Below, one piece after another: positions 1,204 through 31,970 of a stretch of 32,007 nt of DNA (the first letter of the stretch is position 1; the number at the start of each line of letters is the position of its first letter). The notes beneath the pieces were generated by a model that was given only the letters and a program-made list of their open reading frames with translations, was not told the DNA's origin and made no database searches. This DNA is from an uncultured Gammaproteobacteria bacterium (GTDB lineage: Bacteria; Patescibacteriota; Patescibacteriia; 2-01-FULL-39-33). Location: assembly GCA_964608895.1 (NCBI GenBank), contig CAZSPT010000003.1, forward strand, positions 1 through 32,007, in the 5' to 3' direction. A program made the translations under genes and the position numbers.

Positions 1204-1219
1204 AAAAAGCAAGCAAAAA

Positions 1220-1748: not shown

Positions 1749-1755
1749 AATAAAA

Positions 1756-2544: not shown

Positions 2545-2548
2545 ATTA

Positions 2549-3760: not shown

Positions 3761-3766
3761 AAGCTG

Positions 3767-4153: not shown

Positions 4154-4169
4154 TAAAAAATTATTATTT

Positions 4170-5969: not shown

Positions 5970-5980
5970 GATGAATAAAA

Positions 5981-6265: not shown

Positions 6266-6266
6266 A

Positions 6267-6884: not shown

Positions 6885-6897
6885 AGAAATGTATTGA

Positions 6898-8451: not shown

Positions 8452-8456
8452 AAAAA

Positions 8457-9575
8457 TTATTCTATATTTCTCATCGCCAAACCAATCGCAACCGCGAACC
8501 TCGCTCCCAGACGATCAAGAATCGGCTTTAATTCAGTCGGATAAACTACTCGAGCCCAGGGATCACCGAGATGAACATTTAAATCAAACCGCTTAGACAA
8601 GTAGCCGGAAAGATTTCCCAAAAGGCTTGCTCCACCAGTCAAAATTATTTTTTCAACTTTTTTGCCGCTCTGTTGTTGATAAAGATTTAAAGTATATTTA
8701 ATTTCATTAATTGTCGTTTCCAAAGATTTTTCAACCACTTTGGGTAAAGAACTTTCGGCTCCTTCCTTGCCCAAAGCCAAATCCTGCTTAAACTGTTCGG
8801 CCCGCTCCATATTAACGTTAAGATTCTCGGAAATACTCCGGCTGACCATAAAGCCGCCGGCTTTAATACTCCGATTCATTAGAGGAATTCCTTTTTCAAC
8901 CACTGAAACACTTGAAGTGGAGGCTCCGAGGTCAACCACCATCACTATTGATTTGTCATTGCCGACTAAAGAGCGGATAAGAGCGAAATTTTCAGTTTCT
9001 AAACTTAGTAAATCAAGACCGCTCTCTTTAAAAATTCCAATGTATTTCTGAACCAAAACCTTGCTTGAGCCCGTCAAGAGGATTTTGAGATTTTTCTTTG
9101 GCTTGGAAAAAATCTTTTTCAAAGAATTGACCTGCTGGGAAATTTCACTTGCTTGAAATTCTTCCGGCCGCTCTTTATTAATCGGCAGTTCGCCAACAAC
9201 CTTCCAATCAAGAATCAGCTCCTCCAGCGGCATTGGAATAATTTTCTTCGCTTCCCAAGTAATTGCCGAGGCAAGCTCCTTTTTCGGCATTTCCGGCAAG
9301 GTAATAACCGAAGTAAAAACCGAAAAATTTGAAATGGCGGCAATTGCCTTACGGGAGGAAATCCGAGATTTCCGGCAGACGCTTTCAATCACTTCAGCGG
9401 TCTCTTTAACTTCGCCGAGCCGGCCGTCTCCGTTCCAGCGAGTCGGATCTTTTTCAGTAAAACCATAGGTAACCAACTTTGGCCGGCCTTTAAAATTTTC
9501 CAACTCAACCACTTTGACCGAAGAGGTCCCGATGTCAATTCCTAAAAAACTTTTGTCAGAGGAAAATAGTCCCAT
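8457..9575 (-). CDS. pilM: Type IV pilus assembly protein PilM (actin-like ATPase fold)
   Basis: 372 aa. Motifs: FLGIDIGTSSVKVVEL (phosphate-1), VVDLGASTSSVSVV and IILTGGASLLGNL. It lies directly upstream of pilN. Confidence 0.9.
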   Translation of the reverse strand: MGLFSSDKSFLGIDIGTSSVKVVELENFKGRPKLVTYGFTEKDPTRWNGDGRLGEVKETAEVIESVCRKSRISSRKAIAAISNFSVFTSVITLPEMPKKELASAITWEAKKIIPMPLEELILDWKVVGELPINKERPEEFQASEISQQVNSLKKIFSKPKKNLKILLTGSSKVLVQKYIGIFKESGLDLLSLETENFALIRSLVGNDKSIVMVVDLGASTSSVSVVEKGIPLMNRSIKAGGFMVSRSISENLNVNMERAEQFKQDLALGKEGAESSLPKVVEKSLETTINEIKYTLNLYQQQSGKKVEKIILTGGASLLGNLSGYLSKRFDLNVHLGDPWARVVYPTELKPILDRLGARFAVAIGLAMRNIE

Positions 9576-9589
9576 ATTTTAAATTAAAA

Positions 9590-11425
9590 TCAAAAACTTC
9601 TGATAACCGGAAGGCCTTCAACAAATCCTCCCAGTCCCGGCGGCGGGTTGGCCGCCAACCGGCCGTCGTAGATAATCCTTTCCGAGCCCTGGCTTGGAGA
9701 AGTGTAAGTTCGGCGGAAGTCAAAGGCGTGGGCGATAACCACTCCTTTGGCGGTAAGCGGGTAGTTTGAAAATCCGGAAAAAAAGACTCCGCAACCGTTT
9801 GTCTGATACTCAGGGTATTCAGGATCGGAACCGGCTGTTTCCTGGCAAGAATTGCCGTTTCCCAAAAGAATAAAAGCGCCGACAATATCTTTAACATCCG
9901 GAGCGACAACAATATCTCCTTTGACTATCCAAGCGACCGAAGGCAGTTGATTTAATTCAGCCGGAAAAGCCCCGCTTTCATAATCAAAATCCCGATTAAG
10001 ATACAAATCTCCTTCAACGACAATCAGACCATTGCCGTAGCCGCCAAGCGGACCAATACCGAATTCATCCAAATTATTTATAGTCAAATCCCCGGCAGTA
10101 TGATAATAGACTTTGTCGCCCGGTCTAACTGTTCCGACAAATTCATCCGCCAAATCTCCGGCGATAATCTCTTGGCCGTATTTGTTATAATTTCTGCCAT
10201 TGGCAGTTTGGTAGACGGTGGTCAAACCGGCCAAATCAATCCGGCCCAAAGCGTTCCGATAAACTCTGCCGGCTCCCTCTTCTAAATAACCGAGCTCAAC
10301 ATCCTTAATCACTCCCTGCTGGCAATTGCTTGAAGAAACATTCTGGATGTCGTCGGCAAAAATACAGTAGCTGGCGTTCGCTCCCCCGCTCCCGGCCTTT
10401 TGCCGAATCTCTTTGCCGCTGTAAATACTGCCGAACTGGGTTTCCAACCAAGGCAAAACCACTAAAGCTCCTCCTGACAAAGGATTTAAATGGAGCCAGC
10501 CGGCGCCGGTCAGGCCGCTGGCGGTTCCGTCCCAAGCCCAGCCGACAATTTCACCGCTTTTCCAGTCAACATTGGTTCCGTAGAGCTCGCAGCTCGGACA
10601 ACTGTCGCATTCAATCCGAAAACTGCCGTCAATCGCGGCGACTTTCTGACAACCGGTGCAACAGTTTGAACAGCAGGTCGCTCCGGTACAAGCGGGGTCG
10701 GGTTCAGAATTGCCGCGGCCGCTGCCGGTGCAGACAAATTCGCTTCCCCGGTAAACCGGATCGTCGCCCGCCACTCCCGAAGGATGCTGACAATCAAGGT
10801 CGCAATTTGAGCCGGGTTCATAATTTCCCGAAGGCAGTCCTTCGCAAAAACAAGTATTACTAAAGCAAGTGAGGCAGTTTTCAAACTCGGTTTCGGAAAA
10901 ATCCAGACAGGGATCGCTGTCAACACAAACTTCTTCCCCTTGAGGAGTCGTCTGGCAGTTCTGGGTCCAAGCAAGACATTTTTTTTCACAGTCATAGCAT
11001 TGGTAGCCGGCCTGACCGCCGACTGAACCGCCCCGGCGGAAATGAATCCAACCGTCTTCCCCCAAAGAAACCACTTGGGCATAACCTTCAATTTTTCCGG
11101 AATTTCCATCCAAGCTGGCGGTTCGGCCGACCGTCGCTCCAAAACCGATCCAACCAAGATTGCTTGACCAGCCATAGCCGCTAAGATTGTTATTGGAATC
11201 AACTTGGACGCTGTAGTAATTAGAGCAGGTATCAACAGTGCAACTCGGCTGAGTATTGGCGATATTCAAAGAAATCCAACCGTAATTCTCCGACCAAGCC
11301 CAACCGCTTAAAGGATATTCTCCGGCTTGAGCACTTGTTTCTTGAAAATGAAAAACTAAAACAAAGACCGCCGCTAAAATAATCAGGGCTGATGAAAAGA
11401 ACAATATTTTCAAAAACTTAAGCAT
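9590..11425 (-). CDS. Secreted Cys-dense protein with Trp-rich GWAWS..GWI repeats (611 aa), function unknown
   Basis: It has a Sec-type signal (MLKFLKILFFSSALIILAAVFVLVF...TSAQA). Repeats: LSGWAWSENYGWISLN, LSGYGWSSNLGWIGFG, EDGWIHFR and IVGWAWDG...GAGWLHLN. The central core is extremely Cys-rich (CYDCEKKC, CLTCFSNTCFC, CCSNCCTGC, CDSCPSC). The C-terminal third is Cys-poor. Its stop is 14 nt before the pilM ATG. Confidence 0.75.
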   Translation of the reverse strand: MLKFLKILFFSSALIILAAVFVLVFHFQETSAQAGEYPLSGWAWSENYGWISLNIANTQPSCTVDTCSNYYSVQVDSNNNLSGYGWSSNLGWIGFGATVGRTASLDGNSGKIEGYAQVVSLGEDGWIHFRRGGSVGGQAGYQCYDCEKKCLAWTQNCQTTPQGEEVCVDSDPCLDFSETEFENCLTCFSNTCFCEGLPSGNYEPGSNCDLDCQHPSGVAGDDPVYRGSEFVCTGSGRGNSEPDPACTGATCCSNCCTGCQKVAAIDGSFRIECDSCPSCELYGTNVDWKSGEIVGWAWDGTASGLTGAGWLHLNPLSGGALVVLPWLETQFGSIYSGKEIRQKAGSGGANASYCIFADDIQNVSSSNCQQGVIKDVELGYLEEGAGRVYRNALGRIDLAGLTTVYQTANGRNYNKYGQEIIAGDLADEFVGTVRPGDKVYYHTAGDLTINNLDEFGIGPLGGYGNGLIVVEGDLYLNRDFDYESGAFPAELNQLPSVAWIVKGDIVVAPDVKDIVGAFILLGNGNSCQETAGSDPEYPEYQTNGCGVFFSGFSNYPLTAKGVVIAHAFDFRRTYTSPSQGSERIIYDGRLAANPPPGLGGFVEGLPVIRSF

Positions 11426-11452
11426 AATAATTTTTCAAAAAAATCAACTTTC

Positions 11453-14400
11453 TTATTGGGAAGCAACCTTTAAGCATCTGAAATGAGCATAGCCATCATT
11501 TCCAAACCATCCATTGGTCACCCTGACTTCCCATTCCCGGCTGCCGTATAAGGTTTCAGCGTTGTCATCATTCAACGCAGAGGTGACCGGAGCAGAATAT
11601 ATTGTCTTGTACTTATCCTCCCAGTTAGACGACCCGACTCCGCCGCCAATAGCAACATATCCTTCCGGACAGCGGACTCTAAGCATATTAGAGCCCCATT
11701 TGCTCGGTATGCATTCCGATTCCGGATAAAGACATCCATCTTGAGCACAAGTGCAAGTAATAACTCCCAGAGAAAGATTATTAGTGATTTCTTGATTAAG
11801 GGAACCAAGACAATTTCCAGAACCATCGCAGACTTCTCCATCGGCGGAAATATCCCCTCCAACATTAAGATTGCCAGCGCTGTCAATGGTCATCTTGGTC
11901 GTCTCTTGACCATTTGTGGATCCGGGAGAAAAAACTATATCCCCATATTCCCTAAACTCCATTTTATTTTCATCTCGCCTAAACAAAATACGGTGATTGT
12001 TATCAAGACTCCTAATCTGGCCGTTGTCGGCAAAAAATATCTCTTGGCCAGAATTAAGATTAAAATCCCCTCTAACTTTCAAATTATCAGTCAACTCAAA
12101 GCGGGATTCACTATTATCCCAAAAAAGCTGCTTGCCAGTTCCCAGGGTTCCAAAAACAAGATTAATATCATCATCGGTAGGATCTTTATCCTGGCCGATA
12201 AGGGTTAGTTGGCCGTAACCGGTCAATTTTGCCTTAGAATTGCTACTGGGCACTCCGCCAATACCGACATTGCCGTTGCTGTAATAAATTCCGTCACTAT
12301 GCTCCTCCCAAAATCCGCCGCCACTGGCGCCGGCAATATCTGAAAGACAATTTCCAGAACCATCGCAGACTTCTCCTCCGGCAGAAATATTTCCATCCAA
12401 CATTAAGTTTCCATCAATTTTAACATAATCTTCAACTGATAAATCAATAATCGTTTGATCATCATGATGAGAAACTAAGTAATTAGTCTTAAGACTATTA
12501 GTGGCCTCAAAGTTAGTGGCCTCAAAGTTAGTGGCCTTGACCGAACCGCTGTAGTAAATTCCCTGACTGTCCTCCTCCCAAAATCCGGTTAACTCTTCAA
12601 CTGGATAACAGTTAGTGCCGTCCTGATTGCAATAATTTGAAGCTTGGATATTTCCGGAAACATAGAGATCGTTTGAAAACTTAAAATAATTATTAGCGGA
12701 AGACCAAAACAGCTGTTGCCAATTATTATTGTAATCCCCAAAAATAAGATGAATGTCCTGATTGGTCGTTTGACTGCCTTGGCCGATCCTTAAATTTCCC
12801 AAGTTATCAATAACCAGCCGATTTGCCTGAGAGTAATTTTTTTCTTTCCAAAATCTTAATTCATCAGTGCCTTGGTCGTGATAAATTGCCCAATGGTTGG
12901 TGCCGTCAAGAAAGCCGCCGCTCTGAATGTCAATCTCGGCGTTTCCGCTTTCTTGATAAACATGAATATTGGCGTTTGGACTAGCAGTGCCGATTCCGAC
13001 CTGACCGCTTCTTTTAGCGGCAAAAAAAGGATTAGTTTTGTTTCCTTCATAAAGGACAAAATCACTGTATTCGCTGTAGATTTCGCCATCATGCTCAACC
13101 ACCAGCCGATCCCGGCCGCCGGCTGACTGAACACTGAAAAGAGGGGCGCCGGAATAGGGATTGGATTCCGGCCGAATCGCGACGCCGGTTGAATAGTTGG
13201 AAGCGTCTTGTTCGTTGATAGAATATTTGTTGCCGCTCGGGTCTAAAACATGAACTTCGCCTTCGTAAATGATTTGGTCAGCTCCATCCTGCTCCCAAAA
13301 TCCGCCGCCACTGGCGCCGGCAATATCTGAAAGACAATTTTTAAAACCATCGCAGACTTCTCCTCCAACATCAAGATTGCCAGCATAAATTTCAAAATTT
13401 CCGGATGAATCAAATCTTGCTCTCTCCACATTATTGGTGAATATCCCCAGCTGGTCGTCTCCTTGCTGCTGAAAGCCGGTATCATTGTCTCCAATCGCCA
13501 ATTGGAGCGCCGGGTCATCAACGGCGTGTGTGCTACCGGCAGTGAGGGATTTTCCAATACCGACATTGCCGTAGTCACTATCTTTAATAGTAAAAACATC
13601 GCTAAAACCGTTTCGCCTGATAACGAAATTTTCGCTGTCATTTTTTCCAGAATACCATTTTTCATTACTGCCTGACTTAATAACAGTGCCGACATATTCG
13701 CCCTCTGCTCCTTTGATAGTAATTATATCTCCCTGGTCAGAGCCGTTGCCAACAGTTAAACCGGAGGTTCTCGCCTGAAAAAAAGAATTAGTTTTGTTTC
13801 CTCCGTAAAGGACAAAATCACTGTATTCGCTGTAAACTTCGCCGGCGTGCTCAACCACCAGCCGATCTCGGCCGCCGGCTGACTGAACACTGAAAAGAGG
13901 GTCGCCGGAATCGGGATTGGATTCCGGCCGAATCGCGACGCCGGTTGAATAGTTGGAAGCGTCTTGTTCGTTGATAGAATATTTGTTGCCGCTCGGGTCT
14001 AAAACATGAACTTCGCCTTCGTAAATGATTTGGTCAACTCCATCCTGATCCCAAAATCCGGCTGCGCCGCCGCCGGCGCCACCGGCACCAACATTTGAAA
14101 GACAATTGCCGTTAAAACACGCGTCAGATGAAAATTCAAATTGTTCATCAACATTATTCCAAGATAAGGTTTGATCATCTTCATTAACAGCGCTATTACT
14201 GAATATTAAAGATTTATTTCCTTCTCTTTCTTTTCCAATTTCCAAATCCCTTCCTCCAACTGATAATTTTCCCGACCCTGAAAGTAAATCAGTCGTGCCA
14301 ATACCGACATTGCCGTCAGTATCAATTTTCATCATAACGGTTCCGGGAGTTTCAAGCCCAGGCTGGGTAAAAATCCTGAAATCATTATGATTTGGATGCT

Positions 14401-15340
14401 TGTCAATAAGCCAAATTAAATTATTTTCCGGATCTTTTTCATCTCCCAATATTATGCGAGGCTGGGAGCCGTTAATTAAAAGTTTATCAACAACATGCAA
14501 ATCAACTTTAGGATCAGTCGTGCCAATTCCGACATTGCCGTCAGTATCAATTCTCATTCCTTCAATAAAGCCACCTACTCCATCACCATGAATAAATGAC
14601 AATGAATTTCGACTTGAAGCTTGATCACCTCGATTTGAAATATGCCAAGTCTTATTATTATCACTGTCAGAAAGAATTAAACGGCCGGCATGTTGAACGT
14701 CTAAACCGCTTGAATCAACTATTAAATTTCCGTAAAAACTGGCGTCGCCGTCAGGATTAATTGTGAAAGTTTTTAAATAATTTTCATTATTGTCTTTCCG
14801 CCAAATTTCAAAATTATGATTATTATCCTTGCGGTGATACAACCCCCAATTCCAACTGTCTCCCTGGAGTAAAACTCCGGAATATTGATATATATCTCCG
14901 TCACCGCTAAGATTTAAAAAAGCAGCATTATTTCCAGTTCGCGGTCCAATATAGACATTTCCCTGGCTATAACCAATACCGTCATTACGCAATTTCCAAT
15001 ATCCACTCTTTGAATCACTACACTCCCAATGGCCGACGTCGTGATAAGTCAAAATCTCTCCTTCATTGCATTCCATAATGCTTAAAAAAACTTTCTCTTT
15101 ATTGTCACTCCAGTTGCCAAAAATTTCGCCATCAAATTGGGTATCTTGGTTTAAAGGCGGGGCAATATTTCCTTGAGGTGGCGGCGAAGAAGGCTCTTGC
15201 CAAGCAGCTGAAGCAAAATTAAAACCAGCCCCGAAGAACAGTCCGAAAATCACTGCCAGGCTGGTCAAAATCTTTAATTTTAGCCAAAATAAACCAAAAT
15301 TAAGGGATGGTTTTTTACCCTGTCTGCCACCTTCCGTCAT
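11453..15340 (-). CDS. Giant secreted/surface protein (1295 aa) with phage-tail-fibre-like reiterated modules
   Basis: Signal or anchor LKILTSLAVIFGLFFGAGFNFASA is followed by AWQEPSSPPPQGNIAPPLN. DTDGNVGIGTTD occurs twice. A (G)GEVCDG(S/F)(G/K)NCL..GGFWE module occurs three times, plus one degenerate copy (CFNGNCLSNVG..AGFWD). Two units of about 100 aa are nearly identical. The C-terminal domain of about 110 aa contains Cys (CPEGYVAIGGG...FRCLK). Its stop is 27 nt before the next gene. Confidence 0.8.
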   Translation of the reverse strand: MTEGGRQGKKPSLNFGLFWLKLKILTSLAVIFGLFFGAGFNFASAAWQEPSSPPPQGNIAPPLNQDTQFDGEIFGNWSDNKEKVFLSIMECNEGEILTYHDVGHWECSDSKSGYWKLRNDGIGYSQGNVYIGPRTGNNAAFLNLSGDGDIYQYSGVLLQGDSWNWGLYHRKDNNHNFEIWRKDNNENYLKTFTINPDGDASFYGNLIVDSSGLDVQHAGRLILSDSDNNKTWHISNRGDQASSRNSLSFIHGDGVGGFIEGMRIDTDGNVGIGTTDPKVDLHVVDKLLINGSQPRIILGDEKDPENNLIWLIDKHPNHNDFRIFTQPGLETPGTVMMKIDTDGNVGIGTTDLLSGSGKLSVGGRDLEIGKEREGNKSLIFSNSAVNEDDQTLSWNNVDEQFEFSSDACFNGNCLSNVGAGGAGGGAAGFWDQDGVDQIIYEGEVHVLDPSGNKYSINEQDASNYSTGVAIRPESNPDSGDPLFSVQSAGGRDRLVVEHAGEVYSEYSDFVLYGGNKTNSFFQARTSGLTVGNGSDQGDIITIKGAEGEYVGTVIKSGSNEKWYSGKNDSENFVIRRNGFSDVFTIKDSDYGNVGIGKSLTAGSTHAVDDPALQLAIGDNDTGFQQQGDDQLGIFTNNVERARFDSSGNFEIYAGNLDVGGEVCDGFKNCLSDIAGASGGGFWEQDGADQIIYEGEVHVLDPSGNKYSINEQDASNYSTGVAIRPESNPYSGAPLFSVQSAGGRDRLVVEHDGEIYSEYSDFVLYEGNKTNPFFAAKRSGQVGIGTASPNANIHVYQESGNAEIDIQSGGFLDGTNHWAIYHDQGTDELRFWKEKNYSQANRLVIDNLGNLRIGQGSQTTNQDIHLIFGDYNNNWQQLFWSSANNYFKFSNDLYVSGNIQASNYCNQDGTNCYPVEELTGFWEEDSQGIYYSGSVKATNFEATNFEATNSLKTNYLVSHHDDQTIIDLSVEDYVKIDGNLMLDGNISAGGEVCDGSGNCLSDIAGASGGGFWEEHSDGIYYSNGNVGIGGVPSSNSKAKLTGYGQLTLIGQDKDPTDDDINLVFGTLGTGKQLFWDNSESRFELTDNLKVRGDFNLNSGQEIFFADNGQIRSLDNNHRILFRRDENKMEFREYGDIVFSPGSTNGQETTKMTIDSAGNLNVGGDISADGEVCDGSGNCLGSLNQEITNNLSLGVITCTCAQDGCLYPESECIPSKWGSNMLRVRCPEGYVAIGGGVGSSNWEDKYKTIYSAPVTSALNDDNAETLYGSREWEVRVTNGWFGNDGYAHFRCLKVASQ
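12307..12379. repeat. Dispersed intragenic repeat (73 bp), copy 1, encoding the GEVCDG.GNCLSDIAGASGGGFWE module
   Basis: cccaaaatccgccgccactggcgccggcaatatctgaaagacaatttccagaaccatcgcagacttctcctcc recurs at 13294-13366 with 3 mismatches. A partial 36-bp copy lies at 11808-11843. Confidence 0.85.
12499..12538. repeat. 15-bp tandem repeat (about 2.6 units) encoding ATNFEATNFEATN
   Basis: tagtggcctcaaagt occurs twice, followed by a partial third unit. It is in frame within the giant gene. Confidence 0.8.
13031..13304. repeat. 274-bp intragenic direct repeat, copy B
   Basis: It aligns without gaps to 13787-14060 (offset 756 bp = 252 codons). I count about 12 mismatches by eye, and the central stretch of about 120 bp is identical. 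It encodes FWEQDGADQIIYEGEVHVLDPSGNKYSINEQDASNYSTGVAIRPESNP... Confidence 0.9.
13294..13366. repeat. Dispersed intragenic repeat (73 bp), copy 2
   Basis: Same string as 12307-12379, except tttttaaaacc replaces tttccagaacc. Confidence 0.85.
13787..14060. repeat. 274-bp intragenic direct repeat, copy A
   Basis: Partner of 13031-13304. It encodes FWDQDGVDQIIYEGEVHVLDPSGNKYSINEQDASNYSTGVAIRPESNP... Confidence 0.9.
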
Positions 15341-19619: not shown

Positions 19620-20354
19620 ATGGCGGAAACCGCCCTGAAATCAAATTTTAACCAACCAAACGGAATCCCTTCCGCCAAGGGTTCTTTATCTTGGGAAAAA
19701 TCCTTAAACCGAGAAAAACAGCGCCAAAAAATCAAAGCGGAAACAAACTCGCTTTCCGGCTACCAGCAAAACCGATTAAATCAAAGCCCGAAAGCAGAGA
19801 AAAAAACCAATTCCTCTTCAGAAACAGCTGGCGCGAGAACTGCCTCAAAATCAGCCGAAAAAGCCTCTTTTAGCGTCCAGTTGGCAAAAGCCAGAGAAAA
19901 TGCAAAAAATCAAACCGTTTCAAAAAAACCGGCTGAAAAAAAATCAACAGCCGCACAAGAACAAACTATTTCAGCAACGGTCAAAAAAGCAAGTCAAGCT
20001 TCCTTAACCAGTTTTTGGGGTTCGGTTTGGCTTGACTGGACATTTTTCTCCTTGATTTATCTCAACGGTCATCTGGCCGCCTCTTTATTTTTTCCCAACC
20101 AGGTCTGCCAATTTGGAGAAGATAATTTATTTGGAAAATGGATTCCAATGAAATCACTGGCAAAAATAACCGAAATAATTTTTCTGATAATTATTGATGT
20201 GATTATTTTGGGAATTATTGTCATCACAATCTATTTCATTTATCAAATTTCAAAATTTGGCCTCAGAGACTGGGCAGGAATCGGCCTGCGCGGCGCGATT
20301 CCCGGCGGTGAAACCGCCACTGAAGCTATTTTAAGAAAAGCTACTGAAAAATAA
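19620..20354 (+). CDS. Hypothetical membrane protein with Ser/Lys/Ala/Gln-rich disordered N-terminal half
   Basis: 244 aa. Residues 1 to about 130 are low complexity. The C-terminal part has hydrophobic helices (WLDWTFFSLIYLNGHLAASLFF and ITEIIFLIIIDVIILGIIVITIYFIY). The start is not supported by an SD. It is the first gene of a tightly packed operon. Confidence 0.55.
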   Translation: MAETALKSNFNQPNGIPSAKGSLSWEKSLNREKQRQKIKAETNSLSGYQQNRLNQSPKAEKKTNSSSETAGARTASKSAEKASFSVQLAKARENAKNQTVSKKPAEKKSTAAQEQTISATVKKASQASLTSFWGSVWLDWTFFSLIYLNGHLAASLFFPNQVCQFGEDNLFGKWIPMKSLAKITEIIFLIIIDVIILGIIVITIYFIYQISKFGLRDWAGIGLRGAIPGGETATEAILRKATEK

Positions 20355-20368
20355 TAACCAATCCTTTA

Positions 20369-21616
20369 ATGAATTTTGACTGGAAAAAAATCGGCTTAAT
20401 CTTCCTGCTTGTTTTGGCAACCGCCGCCTTGGGTTTTTTAATCTATTTCTTTATCTGGCGGCCGCTCCTAACGCCGACTGAAGAACCGACTCCGACCAAT
20501 CTTAATCAGGAAGAGCCGGACCAAGGACAACTTCCGATTACCATTAACATCAACGGCAGAATTTTTAATCTTAACCTCAACCAAGGATTGCCCGACCAAG
20601 AGCCAGAAATTTCAGTTCCCAGCGGTCAAGAAATTCCGGATTCCGAAGCGCTGGGAAAAATCACTAAGATTGAAACAATTATTCCCAAACCGACCCGTTT
20701 CAGCTCCTTTGATGAAAACAATCTAATCTATTACGACCCCGGAGCCGACAAATTCCGAAAAATCTCCGCTAATGGAGAAATTTCCGACTATCACCGCCAG
20801 CTTTTTTACAATGTTCAGGAAGTGAGCTGGTCGCCTGATCGCCGCCGAGCGATTCTTGAATATCCCGACGGTTCCAATATTCTCTATGATTTTGAAACCG
20901 ACCGCCAAATCACTTTGCCAAAACATTGGCAAAATTTTTCTTTTTCCGGAAACGGCCAGGAAATTGCTTTCAAAAGTATTGGCTTAGACGAAGAAAACAG
21001 ATATTTGACTATTTCCCGGCCAGACGGCTCCCAACCGAGAATTTTGGAGTCAATCGGCGGAGTTGAGGACCAATTTGACCCGAACTGGTCGCCGTCCGGC
21101 CAAATCGCTGCCACTTTCACTAAAAGCCGGGACTATGATCGATCTGAAGTTTATTTTATCGGACAACATAATGAAAATTTTAAAATGATGATTGTTGAAG
21201 GCCGGGATTTCCGGGGAAAATGGTCGCCGGACGGCCAAAAAATACTCTATAGCGTCTACAGCTCCCGCCAAGACTATCGGCCGCAGCTCTGGATTTCCAA
21301 CGCTGTTCCCGGAGACATCGGAGCCAACCGAAAATTTCTCAACCTCCAAACTTGGGTTGAAAAATGCTCTTTTGCCGACAAAACAAAAATTTATTGCGCC
21401 GCTCCAAAGGAGCTTCCTTTTGGCATCGGGCTTGAACCGGAACAGGCGAAAAATATTTCCGACCAAATCTACGAAATAAACCTGAAAACCGGCACTCAAA
21501 AATTAATCGCCATTCCCGAAAAAGACTTGAGCGTCAGCAAAATTCTGATTTCTCCAAACAGCCGGGAGCTTTTCCTAACCGACAGCCGCGGTCGAATTCA
21601 TAAAATAAAACTTTAA
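20369..21616 (+). CDS. Membrane-anchored TolB-like (PD40) beta-propeller protein
   Basis: 415 aa with an N-terminal TM helix. PD40-type repeats recur: WSPDRRRAIL, FSGNGQEIAF, WSPSGQIAA and WSPDGQKILYS. Confidence 0.6.
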   Translation: MNFDWKKIGLIFLLVLATAALGFLIYFFIWRPLLTPTEEPTPTNLNQEEPDQGQLPITININGRIFNLNLNQGLPDQEPEISVPSGQEIPDSEALGKITKIETIIPKPTRFSSFDENNLIYYDPGADKFRKISANGEISDYHRQLFYNVQEVSWSPDRRRAILEYPDGSNILYDFETDRQITLPKHWQNFSFSGNGQEIAFKSIGLDEENRYLTISRPDGSQPRILESIGGVEDQFDPNWSPSGQIAATFTKSRDYDRSEVYFIGQHNENFKMMIVEGRDFRGKWSPDGQKILYSVYSSRQDYRPQLWISNAVPGDIGANRKFLNLQTWVEKCSFADKTKIYCAAPKELPFGIGLEPEQAKNISDQIYEINLKTGTQKLIAIPEKDLSVSKILISPNSRELFLTDSRGRIHKIKL

Positions 21617-21618: not shown

Positions 21619-22338
21619 ATGTTTTTCAAGAAAAAAATTCCAAACCGCCTCGGGCCGATTTTGATAGTCTTATTCTTGTTCACCGCCGTAATTTTCGGAT
21701 TAATCGGCTGGCGGGCGGCTGCTTGGCGGGCGGAAATTCTCAATTATTTGGAAAATTATCCGGATCAAACCCAATCAAAAGAATTAATTTCCCGAAACTT
21801 GGTAAGCTACCGGGAGCCGCCAACCGCCACTAAGCCGGAAATAACCGCTGATTCTCCGACTAAAGGACTGGCAGAAGCGCCGATAACCATTTTTGAATTT
21901 TCTTCGTTTGACTGCTCCTACAGCCGGGAAATCCAGCCGATTCTGGAAAAAATTATCGCTCAATATCCCGAGCAAATAAAACTGGTTTGGAAGGACCTGC
22001 CGATCAGCGATCAAGCCCGGCCGGCTCACTTGGCCGCCCGCTGCGCCCAAAATCAAGGAGAATTCTGGGACTATCACGATAAACTTTGGGAAAATCAAAA
22101 AAATCTAACCACTGACAAACTTAAAAAAATCGCCCAAGAACTCGGACTTAGCCAAAATCAATTCAATTCTTGTCTGGAAGAAAAGCAAACCAAATCAACG
22201 GTTAATCAAGATATTGAAGAAGGAAATATCCTTTTAATCAGCGGCACTCCCCACTTCTACCTTAACAGCCAGGAACTGTTCGGCCTGGCGACTCTTGAAG
22301 ACTTTCAAAAAATAATTGAAATTGAATTAAGCAAATGA
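21619..22338 (+). CDS. DsbA-family thioredoxin-fold protein with a CxxS (CSYS) active-site motif
   Basis: 239 aa with an N-terminal TM anchor. ITIFEFSSFDCSYSREIQPIL aligns with the usual (E/D)F.D..CP.C block. The downstream AARCAQNQGEFWDYHDKLW and ISGTPHFYLN blocks are typical of the DsbA/Thioredoxin_4 family. Confidence 0.7.
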   Translation: MFFKKKIPNRLGPILIVLFLFTAVIFGLIGWRAAAWRAEILNYLENYPDQTQSKELISRNLVSYREPPTATKPEITADSPTKGLAEAPITIFEFSSFDCSYSREIQPILEKIIAQYPEQIKLVWKDLPISDQARPAHLAARCAQNQGEFWDYHDKLWENQKNLTTDKLKKIAQELGLSQNQFNSCLEEKQTKSTVNQDIEEGNILLISGTPHFYLNSQELFGLATLEDFQKIIEIELSK

Positions 22339-23141
22339 AAAAAACAATTATTCTAACCGCCGCCGGCCTGGCCGTTCCCGGCCTTAGCCGGGCAATCATA
22401 TTAAACACTCCGCTCGGGCAACAAACAACCATTGAAAATTTTGCTCAATATATTTCAGCATGGTACCAATTTATCATCGGAAGCGTCGGGGTTTTGGCGG
22501 TCTTGATGATAATGTGGGCCGGCTTCCGCTGGCTGACTTCCCGGGGCAACCAGGAAATCATCAGCGACGCCAAGGACAAAATCTGGTCGGCGATCATCGG
22601 ACTGGTTTTGGTTTTTTTAATTTATACCATTTCCTTCATTATTAATCCCGAACTGACTAAAATTGAACTCCCCAAGCTGCCAACCGCCGAATGGAGTGCG
22701 CCGAACATTCCTAATCCCGAATTAACCGAAGACATTTTTTTAGATAACGAGATAGATCAAGAAGTCAGAGATAGACTTGAAGACGAAGGGATTCTTGTCA
22801 AAGATAATTTTCCAGCTACTCAAGTAGGCGGACTCCAAGAAGAAACAATCCAAGGTATTATCGCCCTGAACGAAGACTATCAGGACTATTTTAATGAAAA
22901 CTGCGACCCGATAATGATAACCGGCGGAAATGAAAACTGGACTCATTCCCCAACCGGCGGCCATCATCAAGGGATTAAACTTGATATCCGAGCGACTGAT
23001 GATTTCAACAATTATATGACCAACTCACTCCTGTCAACTTTCAATCCCGCAGGAGAAACCGTAAATAATTATCAAATATATCAAAGAGGAAATATGACTA
23101 TCATTAACGAACTTAATCACTGGGATATAAAATGGGAATAA
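22335..23141 (+). CDS. VirB2/TrbC-like (T4SS-pilin-like) two-helix membrane module fused to a C-terminal domain with an LAS-peptidase-like H-x6-D...H pattern
   Basis: 268 aa. Signal peptide MKKTIILTAAGLAVPGLSRA, then helix 1 (WYQFIIGSVGVLAVLMIMWAGFRWL), the loop TSRGNQEIISDAKDKI and helix 2 (WSAIIGLVLVFLIYTISFII). This layout matches what I recall of TrbC/VirB2 and the CPR T4SS_pilin family. The C-terminal part reads ITGGNENWTHSPTGGHHQGIKLDIRA...NELNHWDIKW. ATGA start/stop overlap with the dsbA-like gene. Confidence 0.55.
   Translation: MKKTIILTAAGLAVPGLSRAIILNTPLGQQTTIENFAQYISAWYQFIIGSVGVLAVLMIMWAGFRWLTSRGNQEIISDAKDKIWSAIIGLVLVFLIYTISFIINPELTKIELPKLPTAEWSAPNIPNPELTEDIFLDNEIDQEVRDRLEDEGILVKDNFPATQVGGLQEETIQGIIALNEDYQDYFNENCDPIMITGGNENWTHSPTGGHHQGIKLDIRATDDFNNYMTNSLLSTFNPAGETVNNYQIYQRGNMTIINELNHWDIKWE
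22338..22704 (+). repeat. 367-bp direct repeat, copy 1 (5' module of the twin genes)
   Basis: Identical to 23150-23516 (offset 812 bp) except a/g at 22674/23486. Identity stops abruptly at 22705/23517. Confidence 0.95.
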
Positions 23142-23953
23142 TTTTAAACAAAAAAACAATTATTCTAACCGCCGCCGGCCTGGCCGTTCCCGGCCTTAGC
23201 CGGGCAATCATATTAAACACTCCGCTCGGGCAACAAACAACCATTGAAAATTTTGCTCAATATATTTCAGCATGGTACCAATTTATCATCGGAAGCGTCG
23301 GGGTTTTGGCGGTCTTGATGATAATGTGGGCCGGCTTCCGCTGGCTGACTTCCCGGGGCAACCAGGAAATCATCAGCGACGCCAAGGACAAAATCTGGTC
23401 GGCGATCATCGGACTGGTTTTGGTTTTTTTAATTTATACCATTTCCTTCATTATTAATCCCGAACTGACTAAAATTGAACTCCCCGAGCTGCCAACCGCC
23501 GAATGGAGTGCGCCGAGTAATGCCGACCAATCCGAAACCGACCAATCCGAAACCGACCAATTCCAAATTCCCAGTTCTTCAAACGGCATGACCGAAGCGG
23601 TTAACCGTTATCTCGCGCTTCGCCAAGAAATTGAACAAGAAGCAAACGATCCAAATATTATAACTCAGGATGAAATAGGCGCGCTCCGAACCACTCTGAA
23701 CGGAACCTATCAAAGACTGCAGGGAGAATATCCAGAAGCGGATATTTATTTTCTTCCGGGCGATATAACAAGAGCAGATGAAATTCCCGGAGATATAATC
23801 CCGGCCGGAGAAGGAAATGGAGAAGGAAATCTTATTGAAGGATTAAACACTTTTTTGGAAGAACGAGAATTGCAGATAGCAACAATTGAAACTTTTCAAA
23901 GCGACAACGGAGAATATATCTCGGCTTTGGTAATAGAAGAAATTTCCAACTGA
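23132..23953 (+). CDS. Paralogous VirB2/TrbC-like module fused to an unrelated acidic C-terminal domain
   Basis: 273 aa. Residues 7 to about 128 are identical to the preceding protein apart from one K/E change. The tail is unrelated (SNADQSETDQSETDQFQIPSS...EGNGEGNLIEG...). Its start overlaps the previous stop by 10 nt, and a terminator follows. Confidence 0.6.
   Translation: MGIILNKKTIILTAAGLAVPGLSRAIILNTPLGQQTTIENFAQYISAWYQFIIGSVGVLAVLMIMWAGFRWLTSRGNQEIISDAKDKIWSAIIGLVLVFLIYTISFIINPELTKIELPELPTAEWSAPSNADQSETDQSETDQFQIPSSSNGMTEAVNRYLALRQEIEQEANDPNIITQDEIGALRTTLNGTYQRLQGEYPEADIYFLPGDITRADEIPGDIIPAGEGNGEGNLIEGLNTFLEERELQIATIETFQSDNGEYISALVIEEISN
23150..23516 (+). repeat. 367-bp direct repeat, copy 2
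   Basis: See 22338-22704. Confidence 0.95.
23523..23562. repeat. 15-bp tandem repeat (about 2.6 units) encoding DQSETDQSETDQ
   Basis: ccgaccaatccgaaa occurs twice, followed by a partial unit. It lies just after the end of the shared module. Confidence 0.8.
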
Positions 23954-23964
23954 ACCAAATCGCG

Positions 23965-23990
23965 AAAAACTTCCAGTTGGAAGTTTTTTT
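23965..23990 (+). terminator. Rho-independent terminator closing the five-gene operon
   Basis: Stem aaaaacttcc, loop agtt, stem ggaagttttt, followed by a T run extending to 23990. Confidence 0.65.
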
Positions 23991-24036: not shown

Positions 24037-25383
24037 ATGACTGATAATTCCTTTCTCTACAGCTGTTCCAACTGCGGCGCCCAATATCCCAAATGGCAAG
24101 GGCGCTGTTTAGAATGCGGAAAATGGGGCACAATCAATCAGCAACCCGAAAGTTCTTTTAAGGGAAAAATCTCGCCGGCTTCTCCGGACCGGCCGATCAA
24201 CCTCGCTGAAACCGCCTTTAACGTCCAAAAAAGATTAAAAACCGAAATAACCGAGCTTGACCGGGTGCTCGGCGGCGGACTGGTCGCCGGCAGTGTCGTT
24301 CTCCTGGCCGGCCAACCCGGAGGAGGAAAATCAACCCTGGCCGGACAAATCGCCAAAGGAATTTCCGGCGCTCTTTATGTTTCCGGAGAAGAATCAGCCG
24401 AACAAGTGAAAATTAGAAGCGAAAGAATCGGTCTGGACTTGGCTAAATTCCAATTTCTCCCCCAGACTGAAGTTGAAAAAATCGTCGCCACCCTAAAAAA
24501 AATCAAACCGCCGGTCGCGATAATTGATTCAATTCAAACTCTCCACTCTCAAGAACTGCCGGCCGGCCCGGGCAGTCTTAACCAAATCACCGCCAGCGCC
24601 GCCAAACTGATTGAAGCCGCCAAAACAAGCAAAATTCCGATTTTAATCATCGGCCATATCACTAAAGAAGGAACAGTCGCCGGACCAAAAGTCCTGGAAC
24701 ATCTCGTTGACACGGTTCTTTATCTTGAAAACGACAGTCAAAATTTCTATAAAATCCTCCGAAGCGTCAAAAATCGTTTTGGCTCAACCGGAGAAATCGG
24801 AATTTTTGAAATGACCCGGAACGGCTTGGAAGAAATAACCGACCCAAGCGCTCTTTTTCTGGCTGAAAAAAATCAGCCGGCCAACGGCTCAATTACCACT
24901 ATTGTTCTGGAGGGAAGCCGGCCATTCCTGGTTGAAGTCCAGGCCCTAACCGTCAGAACAATTTTCGGCTATCCTCAAAGAAAATCAACCGGCTTTGACC
25001 TCAACCGACTCCAAATGCTTACCGCCGTGTTGGTAAAAATCGGCAAAATAAATCTCGGCAATCAAGATATCTATCTAAACATCGCCGGCGGATTAAAAAT
25101 AAAAGAAACCGCCTCGGATTTGGCGGTTTCACTGGCAATTGCTTCAGCCTTTCTTAATTTGCCCATCCCCCGAGACGCCCTGGCTTTCGGCGAAGTCGGT
25201 TTGGCCGGAGAAATCCGACCGGTCGCCCAGTTCAAAAAAAGAATCGCCGAAGCTGAAAAACTCCAATTCAATAAAATCATCGGCCCGGAAACCAACTTAG
25301 CCGCTCCCGGACTTTTGAAAGCAAAAACAATCAGCGAAGCAATCTCGCTTCTAAAATCACTAAATGAAAAAAGAACGACCTGA
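24037..25383 (+). CDS. radA: DNA repair protein RadA/Sms
   Basis: 448 aa. N-terminal zinc finger CSNCGAQYPKWQGRCLECGKWGT, Walker A GQPGGGKST, the KNRFG motif and a C-terminal Lon-protease-like domain (NIAGGLKIKETASDLAV). Confidence 0.92.
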   Translation: MTDNSFLYSCSNCGAQYPKWQGRCLECGKWGTINQQPESSFKGKISPASPDRPINLAETAFNVQKRLKTEITELDRVLGGGLVAGSVVLLAGQPGGGKSTLAGQIAKGISGALYVSGEESAEQVKIRSERIGLDLAKFQFLPQTEVEKIVATLKKIKPPVAIIDSIQTLHSQELPAGPGSLNQITASAAKLIEAAKTSKIPILIIGHITKEGTVAGPKVLEHLVDTVLYLENDSQNFYKILRSVKNRFGSTGEIGIFEMTRNGLEEITDPSALFLAEKNQPANGSITTIVLEGSRPFLVEVQALTVRTIFGYPQRKSTGFDLNRLQMLTAVLVKIGKINLGNQDIYLNIAGGLKIKETASDLAVSLAIASAFLNLPIPRDALAFGEVGLAGEIRPVAQFKKRIAEAEKLQFNKIIGPETNLAAPGLLKAKTISEAISLLKSLNEKRTT

Positions 25384-29474: not shown

Positions 29475-29567
<93 letters not shown>

Positions 29568-29602
29568 GTCCAATTTCGAACCTTACTAATCATGGACAAA
29601 AT

Positions 29603-30448
29603 ATGGCGGTTGCAAACAAAAAAATTTTAGATAGCGTAAAAGATAAACCTTACTTCAACAAGGATAATTTTGTTTTATATCAAAACGACAGTTTGAAATT
29701 TTTAGAACAACTGCCAGAGAATTCTATTGATATGATTTTTGCCGATCCGCCTTATTTCTTATCATCAGGTAGTTTTACTTGCCAAAACGGTAAAATGGTC
29801 AGTGTTAAAAAGGGAAACTGGGATTTAAGCAACGGACTAAAAAAAGATTTTGAATTTCATCTCGACTGGACAAAAGCATGCCATAGAGTTTTAAAACCGG
29901 GCGGAACAATTTGGATTTCGGGAACTTATCATTCTATTTATCAGTGTGGTCTTGCTTTGCAAACTAATAAATTTCATATCTTAAATGATATTGCTTGGTT
30001 CAAACCCAATGCCTCGCCGAATTTAAGTTGCCGTTTTTTTACTGCCAGTCACGAGACGCTTATTTGGGCAAGAAAAGACAAAAAGGGAAGGCATAAATTT
30101 AATTATGATTTGATGAAAAATAGCGATTGGCCAGAGGATTTTATTAAAAAACCGAATTTGCAAATGAGAAGTGTTTGGGCAATTTATCCGCCCAAAAAAG
30201 AAGAAAAGACTTTTGGTAAGCATCCCACCCAAAAACCAATGGATTTATTAAATAGAGTTGTTTTAGCCGGCACAGATAAAAATGATATTGTTTTGGATCC
30301 TTTTACTGGTTCGTCAACTACTGGTTTGGTTTGTATTTTAAATAATAGAAAATTTATCGGCATTGATACGGAAAAAAAGTATTTGGATTTGTCAATTAAA
30401 AGATTTGACGAATTGGCTAAAAAACAAGGCAGTAAGCTAAAATTTTAA
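29603..30448 (+). CDS. Beta-class N6-adenine DNA methyltransferase (DPPY), DpnA/HinfI-like
   Basis: The start is trimmed to ATG 29603, because the longer track ORF runs through the tRNA. Motif IV IFADPPYF comes before motif I LDPFTGSSTTG, which is the beta-class order. Other blocks: GTIWISG, PNLSCRFFTASHETLIWARK and GKHPTQKP. The target sequence cannot be read from the sequence alone. Confidence 0.85.
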   Translation: MAVANKKILDSVKDKPYFNKDNFVLYQNDSLKFLEQLPENSIDMIFADPPYFLSSGSFTCQNGKMVSVKKGNWDLSNGLKKDFEFHLDWTKACHRVLKPGGTIWISGTYHSIYQCGLALQTNKFHILNDIAWFKPNASPNLSCRFFTASHETLIWARKDKKGRHKFNYDLMKNSDWPEDFIKKPNLQMRSVWAIYPPKKEEKTFGKHPTQKPMDLLNRVVLAGTDKNDIVLDPFTGSSTTGLVCILNNRKFIGIDTEKKYLDLSIKRFDELAKKQGSKLKF

Positions 30449-30452
30449 TTTT

Positions 30453-31073
30453 ATGAAAATCGTTACAAGGGCTACGGCCATCAAAAATTTAAAGAAACAC
30501 ATTGGACAAGATTTAGCCGAACTGTCTAAGAAATTTGGAATTACCACCTACAAGAATGGCAAGCAGAACAAGGGTTGGAAAGGTTTAATATTGGAGAGGT
30601 TAGCTGGGCTTGAATGCAATGTTTCTAAGGCGCCAAATGGTTTGTCTTATGAACTAAAATCAGTGGCCTTCCACTATGTAAAAGATAAACTTGTGCCAAA
30701 AGAAACAATGGCAATAACCATGATTAATCCGCAAGAATTGAAAGAACACGATTTCCTTGAAAGCCATTGTTGGGCGAAATTAAAATCAATCGTTTTTTGT
30801 GCTGTTATGTGGCATGGTCAAAATGCGACTAAAGCTGAATTATTGGAAGTAGAAAGTTTAGATTTTCTAGAAGACGATGACTTGATAAAAGAAATTAAAG
30901 CCGATTATGATTTTATTCGAGAAAAATTGATAAAACACGGATTCGAAAGTTTGACGGGCAAAGATGGCAAATGGATTCAAGCAAGAACCAAAGGCCCGGG
31001 ACACGGTTCAATCAGCAGGGCTTTTTACGCCCGAAAAGAATTAGTCGAAAAAATATTCGAAATTGGGGAATAA
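30453..31073 (+). CDS. MutH/Sau3AI-family endonuclease (putative restriction partner of the methyltransferase)
   Basis: 206 aa, starting 4 nt after the methyltransferase stop. NKGWKGLILERLAG...LSYELKSV aligns by eye with MutH DKGWIGVLLEIWLG...LGVELKTI. GKWIQARTKG and RAFYARKEL align with MutH GEYLQIRPKA and RGFYLKKNF. Confidence 0.6.
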   Translation: MKIVTRATAIKNLKKHIGQDLAELSKKFGITTYKNGKQNKGWKGLILERLAGLECNVSKAPNGLSYELKSVAFHYVKDKLVPKETMAITMINPQELKEHDFLESHCWAKLKSIVFCAVMWHGQNATKAELLEVESLDFLEDDDLIKEIKADYDFIREKLIKHGFESLTGKDGKWIQARTKGPGHGSISRAFYARKELVEKIFEIGE

Positions 31074-31094
31074 TTAATTATAGAATAGATATGA

Positions 31095-31970
31095 TAGGGT
31101 AAAGTTCAATATTTGAACCTACGATGATTTAATTATCCGCTTAAACAAAAGGTTTTCCTGCTCTTTTAATGATAGATTTCTATGATTGTATCTCCAGACG
31201 TATTCTCCAAGGTAAATAGGCAGTCTTTTTCGTCTGATTCCGCCCCTGGCCGCCAGCTTTCTTTTCAGGTATCCCCAGAACCCCTCCAGTCCATTGATAT
31301 GGTTTCCTTTCTTATCAGAATACTCAAATTCAGAATGTTTAACCAGTCGATGAACATATCCTCTTAAAGCAATACCGGTATATCCTCTCCAAGTATCGGA
31401 GCAAATAGTTGAACCCTTTCTAACCTGTTTTTCAATCAATGGTTGCAAGTCAACGGCTTCGGTCTTGTCCATTACTTTAGCCCAGACCTTGCCATTGCGG
31501 CAAAGGATGCCAAAGATCGGTTGTTTGATTGTCCCGAATCCTCTGGTTCGCTTGCTTCTTTTCTGATATTTAAGCCGTTCTTGGAGCTTTCGGTTTTTCA
31601 TCTGTCCGCCCAGATAGGTTTCGTCCACTTCGACATAGCCGTCAAAGACATCAGGCAGATCTTTGGTCATTTCCATTCTTAACAGCGTTAATGTTTTTAA
31701 CAATTTGTATTTAGAAACATTAACTCTGGCCAGAATGATATTGGTGGAATGTTCCAGGATTAATTCAGAGATGATTTGTTTAAGAATCTTATTCGGAATA
31801 CTCGCTTGGTTTGTTTTAGGAGTGAAAAGACAACGGCAATTTCTGCATTTCAATCTCTTGTCAGATACTTTCCAAAATTTAGATTTAGAACACTTAGGAC
31901 ACTTGGTTTGAAATGAATTCATGATGATAGAATTTTATCATCTTTGGTTCACTTTTCAAACTTTACCCTA
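31095..31970 (-). mobile_element. IS1595-family insertion sequence (876 bp)
   Basis: Terminal inverted repeats: 31095 TAGGGTAAAGTTcaatattTGAACC against the reverse complement of 31946-31970, TAGGGTAAAGTTtgaaaagTGAACC. The first 12 bp are perfect and 19 of 25 match overall. It contains one transposase gene. I found no convincing target-site duplication. Confidence 0.8.
31119..31922 (-). CDS. IS1595-family (ISXO2-like) DDE transposase with N-terminal zinc ribbon
   Basis: 267 aa. Motifs: CPKCSKSKFWKV...CRNCRCLF, VEVDETYLGG, IFGILCRNGKVWAKV, ICSDTWRGY, HINGLEGFWGYLKRKL and YLGEYVWRYNHRN. Confidence 0.85.
   Translation of the reverse strand: MNSFQTKCPKCSKSKFWKVSDKRLKCRNCRCLFTPKTNQASIPNKILKQIISELILEHSTNIILARVNVSKYKLLKTLTLLRMEMTKDLPDVFDGYVEVDETYLGGQMKNRKLQERLKYQKRSKRTRGFGTIKQPIFGILCRNGKVWAKVMDKTEAVDLQPLIEKQVRKGSTICSDTWRGYTGIALRGYVHRLVKHSEFEYSDKKGNHINGLEGFWGYLKRKLAARGGIRRKRLPIYLGEYVWRYNHRNLSLKEQENLLFKRIIKSS

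Follow-up and report, generated by a model that had tools for sequence, protein, structure and literature searches.

In Patescibacteria, VirB2-like pilins of the T4SS_pilin family (PF18895) have been described as tandem arrays of short proteins of about 95 to 190 amino acids (aa), which consist of a signal peptide and a two-helix hairpin, diverge strongly within an array (mean identity 25%, maximum 54%) and, in the class ABY1, are linked to monoderm-type type IV secretion systems (T4SS) and to recG and radA (Wang et al. 2023, PMC10633639; Quinonero-Coronel et al. 2025, PMC12102498). The T4SS loci of this class include comF, recG, and radA, and the published descriptions of the arrays mention no fusion to wall enzymes (PMC10633639, PMC12102498). 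According to published surveys, most VirB2-bearing Patescibacteria are without a recognizable VirB1, and the sole genetically tractable Patescibacterium cannot live epibiotically without its T4SS genes and VirB2-like pilin arrays. The stretch of DNA analyzed here, referred to as the window, comprises 32,007 nucleotides (nt) of contig CAZSPT010000003.1 (assembly GCA_964608895.1; GTDB lineage Patescibacteriota) and contains two tandem genes, A and B, whose products belong to the same Pfam family and resemble the described pilins in the signal peptide and two-helix hairpin, the tandem order, and, in relatives of the locus, the linkage to a monoderm-type T4SS and recG/radA in ABY1. Unlike the pilins of the described arrays, proteins of the A/B type are 226 to 420 aa long, carry large enzyme domains or unassigned domains at the C terminus, and have modules homogenized up to 100% at the DNA level. 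Because A and B share only about 45% of their residues over the full length, such pairs may be hidden in the published array statistics. With moderate confidence, A and B are interpreted as a tandem pair of modular VirB2-like proteins that is ancient and fixed in the chromosome and would deliver wall-hydrolase domains at a T4SS; the evolutionary conclusions are solid, and the functional model is plausible.

Gene A (22335..23141, plus strand, 268 aa) was delimited from its open reading frame (ORF), Pfam matches, and an AlphaFold 2 (AF2) model and encodes a signal peptide, a VirB2-like module, a linker, and a LAS/M15-like domain. Gene B (23132..23953, plus strand, 273 aa), delimited from its ORF and the PF18895 match, encodes the same module followed by an orphan acidic C-terminal domain (C-domain). 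A preliminary description of this DNA had reported a 5' module identical at 366 of 367 positions, with abrupt loss of similarity after it, and both statements were confirmed. Repeat copy 1 (22338..22704, plus strand) and copy 2 (23150..23516, plus strand), both regarded as the conversion tract, are offset by 812 nt and differ only at 22674 A / 23486 G, by which AAG (Lys114) in gene A becomes GAG (Glu) in gene B. The repeat begins at the second codon of gene A and the seventh of gene B, covers the signal peptide, the transmembrane hairpin, and the linker PELTKIELPKLPTAEWSAP, and stops in both genes one base past the last Pro codon of the linker end PTAEWSAP. A 39-mer of the repeat occurs exactly twice in the window, compared to none expected from 100 shuffles. 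The in-register identity of the flanks, 32% in the 60 nt upstream and 27 to 30% downstream, is at the random level.

That the repeat is an assembly artefact is highly unlikely. Its length of 367 nt exceeds short-read k-mers, no further contig came up when the exact products of A and B were looked up, and a chimeric third gene in one relative, with its junction in a 65-nt exact run, could be a misassembly. Against this, the sequences 3' of the two repeat copies are unique and differ from each other, and the outer flanks are unique, which rules out an assembly loop as the source of the tandem layout; read collapsing could alter the exact count of differences between the copies but not this layout. 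The gene order matches that of about 25 independent assemblies from several pipelines, a second locus (L016) independently has a 365-nt exact run between its modules, and the pair that includes the related protein P0008 is present on at least 24 contigs.

The shared module scored 38.4 bits in A and 38.2 bits in B against PF18895, which has a gathering cutoff of 26.6 bits, and most of the 20 close relatives scanned passed this cutoff, three being slightly below it. The predicted Sec signal peptide of A, MKKTIILTAAGLAVPGLSRA, lies at 22335..22394 (plus strand) with its hydrophobic segment centred at residues 13-14, and cleavage is expected after SRA as read by eye. The VirB2-like hairpin at 22440..22643 (plus strand) was delimited by AF2 and hydropathy and consists of two hydrophobic helices with the loop W-L-T-S-R-G-N. 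Its AF2 helices in gene A span residues 36-68 and 73-103, and the hydropathy profile has three peaks, in the signal region at 13-14 and then at 48-57 and 90-99. The module therefore has the signal peptide and two-helix hairpin of a T4SS_pilin protein, with cleavage and orientation predicted. Loop residues S69, R70, and G71 are invariant in 16 relatives, and the mean column identity of the module among relatives is 68%, whereas their C-domains are not alignable. Judged from these alignments, the conservation of the module, and of the loop especially, is far in excess of what a plain anchor would need. No class III signal peptide with an N_methyl motif was found by Pfam in A or B, and the genuine type IV pilin of the window (1220-1603) does have an N_methyl match. 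A type IV pilus cluster occupies positions 715-15340 on the minus strand, with genes for PilM, a PilB-like ATPase, PilC, a response regulator, and an N_methyl pilin, and with three large ORFs (1295, 611, and 517 aa) without a Pfam match.

Relatives of the pair were sought by word-indexed searches, in which the N-terminal module alone returned five short pilins and the C-domain of A returned nothing; informative relatives were reached only with full-length B as the query. Close relatives of the window's module were also sought in a metagenome scan, which gave none. This query gave 25 related proteins of 161 to 408 aa, all but one at least 226 aa long, with modules 43 to 66% identical to those of the window. 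Many of them are paired on the same contigs, and several carry SLT, GH24 lysozyme, YkuD, M15_3, or M23 domains. In the contigs of these relatives and a scan of GTDB species genomes, the same locus was recognized at 16 further distinct loci in the order LemA-M48-ClpC-x244-x415-(DsbA)-pilin1-pilin2-RadA-RecG-x167, 14 of them with the tandem pair and one with a single pilin gene. After a metagenome scan, the set comprised 26 non-redundant loci with at least two modules, the window counted. The records of the related loci are named Buchananbacteria, Kerfeldbacteria, Falkowbacteria, or "Patescibacteria group", and the pair-bearing hosts are about 25 other ABY1-type Patescibacteria. The N-terminal module was thus found fused to other C termini at about 25 other loci and is not a lone duplication, a possibility that the preliminary description had raised. 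Because the RadA of the window is just 47 to 60% identical to the RadA of the related loci, the two-gene arrangement predates deep splits.

The copy number of pilin genes varies among the related loci. A Kerfeldbacteria locus has a single one (L018:4785-5678), and L044:10001-13252 has three, with a GH24, an M15, and an unassigned domain. At L012:4182-5978, one ORF of 598 aa encodes two serial pilin modules, which share about 55% identity, and after them an SLT domain; it may represent a fusion of two paired genes or a variant with four helices. More distant Patescibacterial loci have the N-terminal module in front of Ig-like (Big_5, TIG), M23, and C39-like domains. Six distant loci (L025, L030, L034, L037, L040, and L041) contain arrays of four to eight short PF18895 genes, together with genes for proteins of 300 to 520 aa in which the module is C-terminal, not N-terminal.

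The modules of tandem partners undergo concerted evolution, homogenized by gene conversion, a conclusion that is solid. In all 14 pairs of the first set, high in-register nucleotide identity was confined to the module core, with about 25% on either side, and the longest exact runs between partners were 365 nt (L016), 336 nt (the window), 104, 86, and 84 nt. Third-codon-position identity of the core was on average 0.75 within genomes (0.49 to 1.00), compared to 0.41 between genomes, and the nearest module was the own-genome partner in 24 of 28 genes; the exceptions came from the closely related genomes L019 and L020, whose orthologues still resemble each other more. In the related genomes L015 and L016, the two modules of a genome are 100% identical and those of different genomes about 80%, and the leaders of gene 2 are closer between the genomes than to gene 1 of their own genome, a pattern that indicates gene conversion after speciation, not one recent duplication. 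In the enlarged set, within-genome partner identity formed a continuum from 0.71 to 1.00. The GC content at third codon positions was higher in the module than in the C-domain in 28 of 31 genes (0.58 compared to 0.34 to 0.36 in the window, and a mean of 0.47 compared to 0.33 elsewhere). This gap fits GC-biased conversion, would also be possible with a foreign origin of the cassettes, and is not decisive.

For the window itself, conversion between old paralogues is very probable in preference to a recent partial duplication. Since the C-domain of B has no orthologue, this is concluded from the position of the pair and by analogy with its relatives. A very recent duplication of the 5' module of A onto another reading frame is quite improbable. 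The window tract spans the whole 5' module from codon 2, including the signal peptide, as such an event would predict, while the leaders differ in most relatives, and the age of B cannot be shown directly from a C-domain without an orthologue. The same two-gene layout at the same position in about 25 deeply diverged genomes (by their RadA identity), the continuum of partner identity, and the homogenization after speciation in L015 and L016 with orthologous gene-2 leaders speak against it. Of the two origins offered by the preliminary description, very recent duplication or active gene conversion, the second is supported by the within-genome and between-genome identities and by L015/L016.

Two nearly identical loci from the same aquifer site differ in the number of pilin genes. 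L066:2727-5769 and L001:6449-8412 are 99.7% identical, and L066 has three pilin genes, of which the middle one combines the leader and the 5' module of gene 2 with the 3' module and the M15 domain of gene 1. The chimera has a single switch, inside a 65-nt exact run common to the modules, and results from either a duplication by unequal crossover or a misassembly induced by the repeat.

Behind the constant module, the C-domains are exchanged. The types present at the orthologous locus are an M15-like cluster that includes A, SLT (PF01464), GH24 (PF00959), YkuD, and M23, and many others are singletons without a Pfam match; some apparent partner domains look LAS-like or transglycosylase-like by eye. 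A hydrolase may precede or follow an unassigned domain, two hydrolases may stand together (GH24 and M15 in L016, SLT and a LAS-like domain in L012), or three genes may be present (L044). The clearest exchange was observed between L019 and L020, which are collinear with 72 to 82% nucleotide identity over 10 kb. Their gene-2 products are 83% identical over the first 202 aa and then unrelated, with an SLT domain in one and an M15 domain in the other, which is read from the sequences as a replacement of the cassette exactly after the module. The constant module with swappable C termini proposed in the preliminary description is therefore borne out at the orthologous locus. The orphan C-terminal cassettes for which it suggested a search were absent; none follows the pair, and additional genes in the relatives all have a complete module. 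Its comparison with polymorphic toxins holds for the constant N-terminal part and the C-terminal replacement and fails for orphan cassettes; a variable partner gene follows in many genomes, where an immunity gene would be expected, but order and content vary, and the likeness is one of analogy only. For a single family comprising all partner domains, phmmer among these domains gave no sequence support. A plasmid search gave no match, and the idea of mobile-element cargo was dropped.

The same exchange could suggest a polymorphic effector-immunity pair, in which A would be a wall-degrading effector against a host or competitor and B its rapidly co-evolving immunity protein, anchored in the producer membrane through the same module. 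A hydrolase gene directly followed by a hypervariable partner gene, C-domains exchanged between genomes, and partner domains that are mostly singletons agree with such a system. It is nevertheless very improbable: the pairs in L016 and L012 consist of two hydrolases, the hydrolase comes second in L019 and L020, one genome has three genes, cassettes without a module do not follow the pair, and nothing points to a binding of A by B.

The C-domain of A (aa 124-268; 22704..23138, plus strand) is assigned to the LAS/M15 type (Hedgehog/DD-peptidase) by profiles, alignment, and, weakly, Foldseek. Alone, it had no Pfam match and no PDB sequence match in single-sequence searches, and the assignment was obtained with its relatives. 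BLASTP matched it to P0026 at 4e-13, a leave-one-out profile of the other eight members of its cluster matched A with an E value of 1.1e-12, and three of the nine cluster members matched Peptidase_M15_3 (PF08291; best 7.8e-9). Compared with PDB, the cluster profile matched the Hedgehog N-domain and the pneumococcal L,D-endopeptidase VldE with an E value of 0.003 over the segment TSGyR...H-x6-D. In the AF2 model, the block-mean predicted local distance difference test (pLDDT) was mostly 83 to 92 for residues 141-230, and Foldseek with this model ranked VldE (9flk) first, with an E value of 0.03 and a probability of 0.69, followed at lower ranks by the VanY-like LdcB (4jid) and MepA (1u10), all with weak scores. 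The zinc motif H-x(3-6)-D is present as H210-x6-D217 (22962-22985, plus strand; family alignment), its H, G, and D are invariant in alignments of nine and six sequences, and the family motif aligns with that of Hedgehog and VldE. With the LAS group, or MEROPS M15 (VldE of S. pneumoniae, VanY/LdcB, phage T5 endolysin, and the Hedgehog N-domain), A thus has in common T-[SG]-G-x...H-x6-D and a predicted alpha/beta fold. The C-domain of A is LAS/M15-like in fold and ancestry, and the metallopeptidase-like domain that the preliminary description had placed in one of the genes is upheld by the leave-one-out profile, the PF08291 matches, and the recovery of VldE by both profile and model.

The C-domain of B (aa 129-273; 23516..23950, plus strand) starts with an acidic (DQSET)n linker, encoded by about 2.6 repetitions of the 15-nt unit GACCAATCCGAAACC at 23526-23565, and continues with a predicted alpha-alpha-beta-alpha-beta-beta domain. 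It has no His and no Cys and an isoelectric point (pI) of 4.05. A phmmer search against 1.84 billion representative proteins returned the domain itself and two short weak matches only, and single-sequence searches gave no Pfam match and no PDB match. The single-sequence AF2 model had a mean pLDDT of 64, and Foldseek with the model of B found no meaningful structural neighbour. A degenerate M15 domain was considered and rejected, as B has no His and gave no signal in hhalign against the M15 profile. The acidic domain attributed to this gene in the preliminary description is indeed acidic and without relatives, but the C-domain of A is equally acidic (pI 4.14), and acidity does not distinguish the two.

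Genes A and B end a translationally coupled operon, because the start and stop codons overlap and a hairpin with a U run follows B. The ATG of gene A overlaps the stop codon of the upstream gene in ATGA, and the ATG of gene B lies in a 10-nt overlap with the 3' end of gene A. The upstream gene (21619..22338, plus strand) encodes a DsbA-like thiol-disulfide oxidoreductase (Pfam Thioredoxin_4, 2.3e-23; DSBA, 9.3e-21), and most related loci likewise have a DsbA-like gene immediately 5' of the pair. The terminator-like hairpin directly 3' of gene B (23964..23989, plus strand) has an 11-bp stem followed by a U run, was missed by a consensus terminator scan, and was revealed by direct folding (-14.2 kcal/mol, z -3.4 compared to shuffles). 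Only 83 nt with this hairpin separate gene B from its downstream neighbour, the RadA gene (24037..25383, plus strand; Pfam and synteny).

Further upstream, x244 and x415 (19620-21616 in the window) precede the DsbA gene throughout the syntenic loci; x415 has an N-terminal transmembrane helix and a weak PD40 repeat match, and both genes may belong to the same envelope operon as the pair. Many relatives have a CX3C...CX3C motif between the signal peptide and the module (P0009, P0017, P0022, P0024, and the gene-2 leaders of L019 and L020). A and B of the window are without this leader, with one Cys in A and none in B, and the DsbA gene directly upstream.

A possible connection with type IV secretion emerged from the wider neighbourhood of relatives. 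In L001, L043, and L044, whose flanks are long enough, the gene of a VirB4-like ATPase lies 6 to 8 kb from the pair beyond RadA/RecG, and in L043, genes for TraC-like and PrgI (VirB3-like) proteins stand beside it. In the essential T4SS cluster of Southlakia, a protein with a Hedgehog/DD-peptidase domain and a lysozyme-like protein adjoin VirB4, together with short PF18895 pilins.

In the proposed model, each protein would be exported via its Sec signal peptide and be held in the membrane by the two helices of the hairpin, their short basic loop (WLTSRGN...) lying in the cytoplasm, and the Pro-rich linker would present the C-domain of about 145 aa outside the cell. The outer domain of A would act with a LAS/M15-type zinc peptidase fold on the peptide stems of peptidoglycan, and that of B would be a fast-evolving partner whose activity is unassigned. 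Through the common module, A and B would dock to one and the same machinery, most probably the monoderm-type T4SS nearby, where they would serve as anchors, membrane-pool pilins, or minor pilus subunits, so that VirB1-type wall cutting would be delivered where the apparatus or pilus crosses the cell's own wall or that of a host. Recurrent gene conversion between the tandem modules would keep them alike, with one difference left in the window, and differently loaded subunits would remain compatible with one machinery. The non-homologous 3' halves would escape conversion and occasionally be replaced by other hydrolase cassettes.

Several observations weigh against this model. At the level of the module, TrbC/VirB2 (PF04956) reached 20.6 to 20.8 bits in A and B (E value about 5e-4) and 24.9 bits in the best relative, below its cutoff of 27.9; of the VirB2/TrbC-like module with signal peptide and linker in the preliminary description, and of the profile check proposed there, the T4SS_pilin assignment stands and the TrbC/VirB2 one falls just short of the threshold. 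The module profile matched no solved pilin in PDB, and pilus formation has been demonstrated for no Patescibacterial PF18895 protein. At the level of the enzyme, A itself reaches no Pfam M15 model, and its structural matches are weak (E value 0.03; TM scores of 0.19 to 0.38, which are low due to the inclusion of the membrane module in the Foldseek query). In VldE, zinc is coordinated by the H-x6-D motif together with the second His of an H-x-H motif (H373-x-H375; PMC11667670). Unlike LAS/M15 enzymes, A has neither this second His nor the Arg of "SGYR": its third-ligand site reads H262-W-D264 (23118-23126, plus strand; family alignment) and is not H-x-H. The closest relative, P0026, has H-W-H and the other members W-H-[IV]-D, and A alone among the nine aligned domains has Asp at the presumed third zinc-ligand position. 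By this motif, A may be catalytically altered or inactive, or the Asp could replace His as a zinc ligand; because the position reads H-W-D, the activity of A is uncertain. For B, no function was identified by Pfam, phmmer, AF2 with Foldseek, or hhalign. At the level of the locus, the window itself contains no T4SS gene (VirB4, VirB3/PrgI, or VirB6). Positions 29489-31922 instead hold genes for an N6/N4 DNA methylase, a MutH/Sau3AI-like endonuclease, and an IS1595-family transposase, which occupy the slot of the ComF-like, VirB4-like, TraC-like, and PrgI genes of the relatives, and the window ends 85 nt further on. The locus lies amid housekeeping genes, a setting just as compatible with the role of an ordinary autolysin.

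The last point leads to the main competing explanation, that A and B are housekeeping membrane-anchored autolysins with the module as a mere anchor or dimerization device, remodelling the cell's own wall in growth or division without a role in a T4SS or toward a host. This is possible, if doubtful. The chromosomal locus, syntenic with ClpC, DsbA, RadA, and RecG and with the envelope-type x244 and x415, would suit it, as would the missing plasmid match and the lack of a T4SS gene in the window. Membership in PF18895 and a cytoplasmic loop far more conserved than a plain anchor needs speak against it, as do the T4SS genes 6 to 8 kb away in three relatives, the published link of radA/recG with the T4SS in ABY1, and the same two hydrolase classes among the essential T4SS-cluster genes of Southlakia. 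Docking of A and B to a T4SS is favoured because the module is over-conserved, the locus is T4SS-linked in relatives, and the Southlakia hydrolases lie next to VirB4.

A bolder version, in which the PF18895 module is a true polymerizing pilin and A, B, and their relatives are minor or tip subunits of a T4SS pilus bearing hydrolases and binding domains, a "lytic pilus", is rather unlikely. If it were true, an epibiotic Patescibacterium could open the cell wall of its host with such a pilus, conversion would keep differently armed subunits co-polymerizable, and recombination at the module would re-arm lineages with new cassettes.

Proteins of the A/B type are already in databases, annotated as "pilin". 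In full-text searches of open-access papers and bioRxiv, neither fusions of PF18895 with hydrolases nor the concerted evolution of such fusions turned out to be described, in agreement with the preliminary description, which was aware of no account of this architecture for VirB2-like modules. Under the docking model, a VirB2-like module fused to M15, SLT, GH24, or YkuD constitutes a "Rosetta-stone" link between a pilin module and wall cutting, and the pair indicates where the missing VirB1-type hydrolase function may reside in the class ABY1. The locus supplies candidates for the biochemistry of muralytic activity and of host-versus-self wall specificity. It is also a clear case from nature in which gene conversion confined to a module goes together with the replacement of cassettes, and it informs surface diversification in reduced genomes.

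Among known systems, the VirB1-type and monoderm T4SS hydrolases (PrgK, TcpG, CwlT, and SEML1_0006/0007 of Southlakia) belong to the same catalytic classes as the A/B-type cargo, namely, a lytic transglycosylase or lysozyme and a peptidase of the Hedgehog/DD-peptidase fold. They stand alone as proteins, often with several domains, and have no pilin module, whereas in A/B-type proteins, each catalytic domain is carried on its own VirB2-like module, by genes 6 to 8 kb from virB4. The modular type 4 pilins PilB and PilC of S. sanguinis (PMC8179133) follow the same principle, a functional module grafted onto the C terminus of a pilin, by which the filament or anchor gains an activity, but type 4 pilins are an unrelated superfamily, in which a class III signal peptide is combined with one N-terminal helix, and A and B have no N_methyl motif. 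Polymorphic toxins (Rhs, CdiA, and MafB) and pilE/pilS recombination resemble the locus in the constant N-terminal part, the unrelated C termini, the replacement at a fixed junction, and the recombination between repeated conserved segments. Unlike these systems, the locus has no truncated orphan cassettes and no demonstrated immunity gene, and its two genes are complete and coupled; in contrast to pilE/pilS, conversion homogenizes the constant part of A and B instead of diversifying the variable part. The bacterial paralogues tufA and tufB are an example of concerted evolution, being closer within a genome than orthologues are between genomes, synonymous sites included. Unlike in tufA/tufB, homogenization in A/B-type pairs is limited to a module of about 200 to 370 nt, and the remainder of the two genes is non-homologous.

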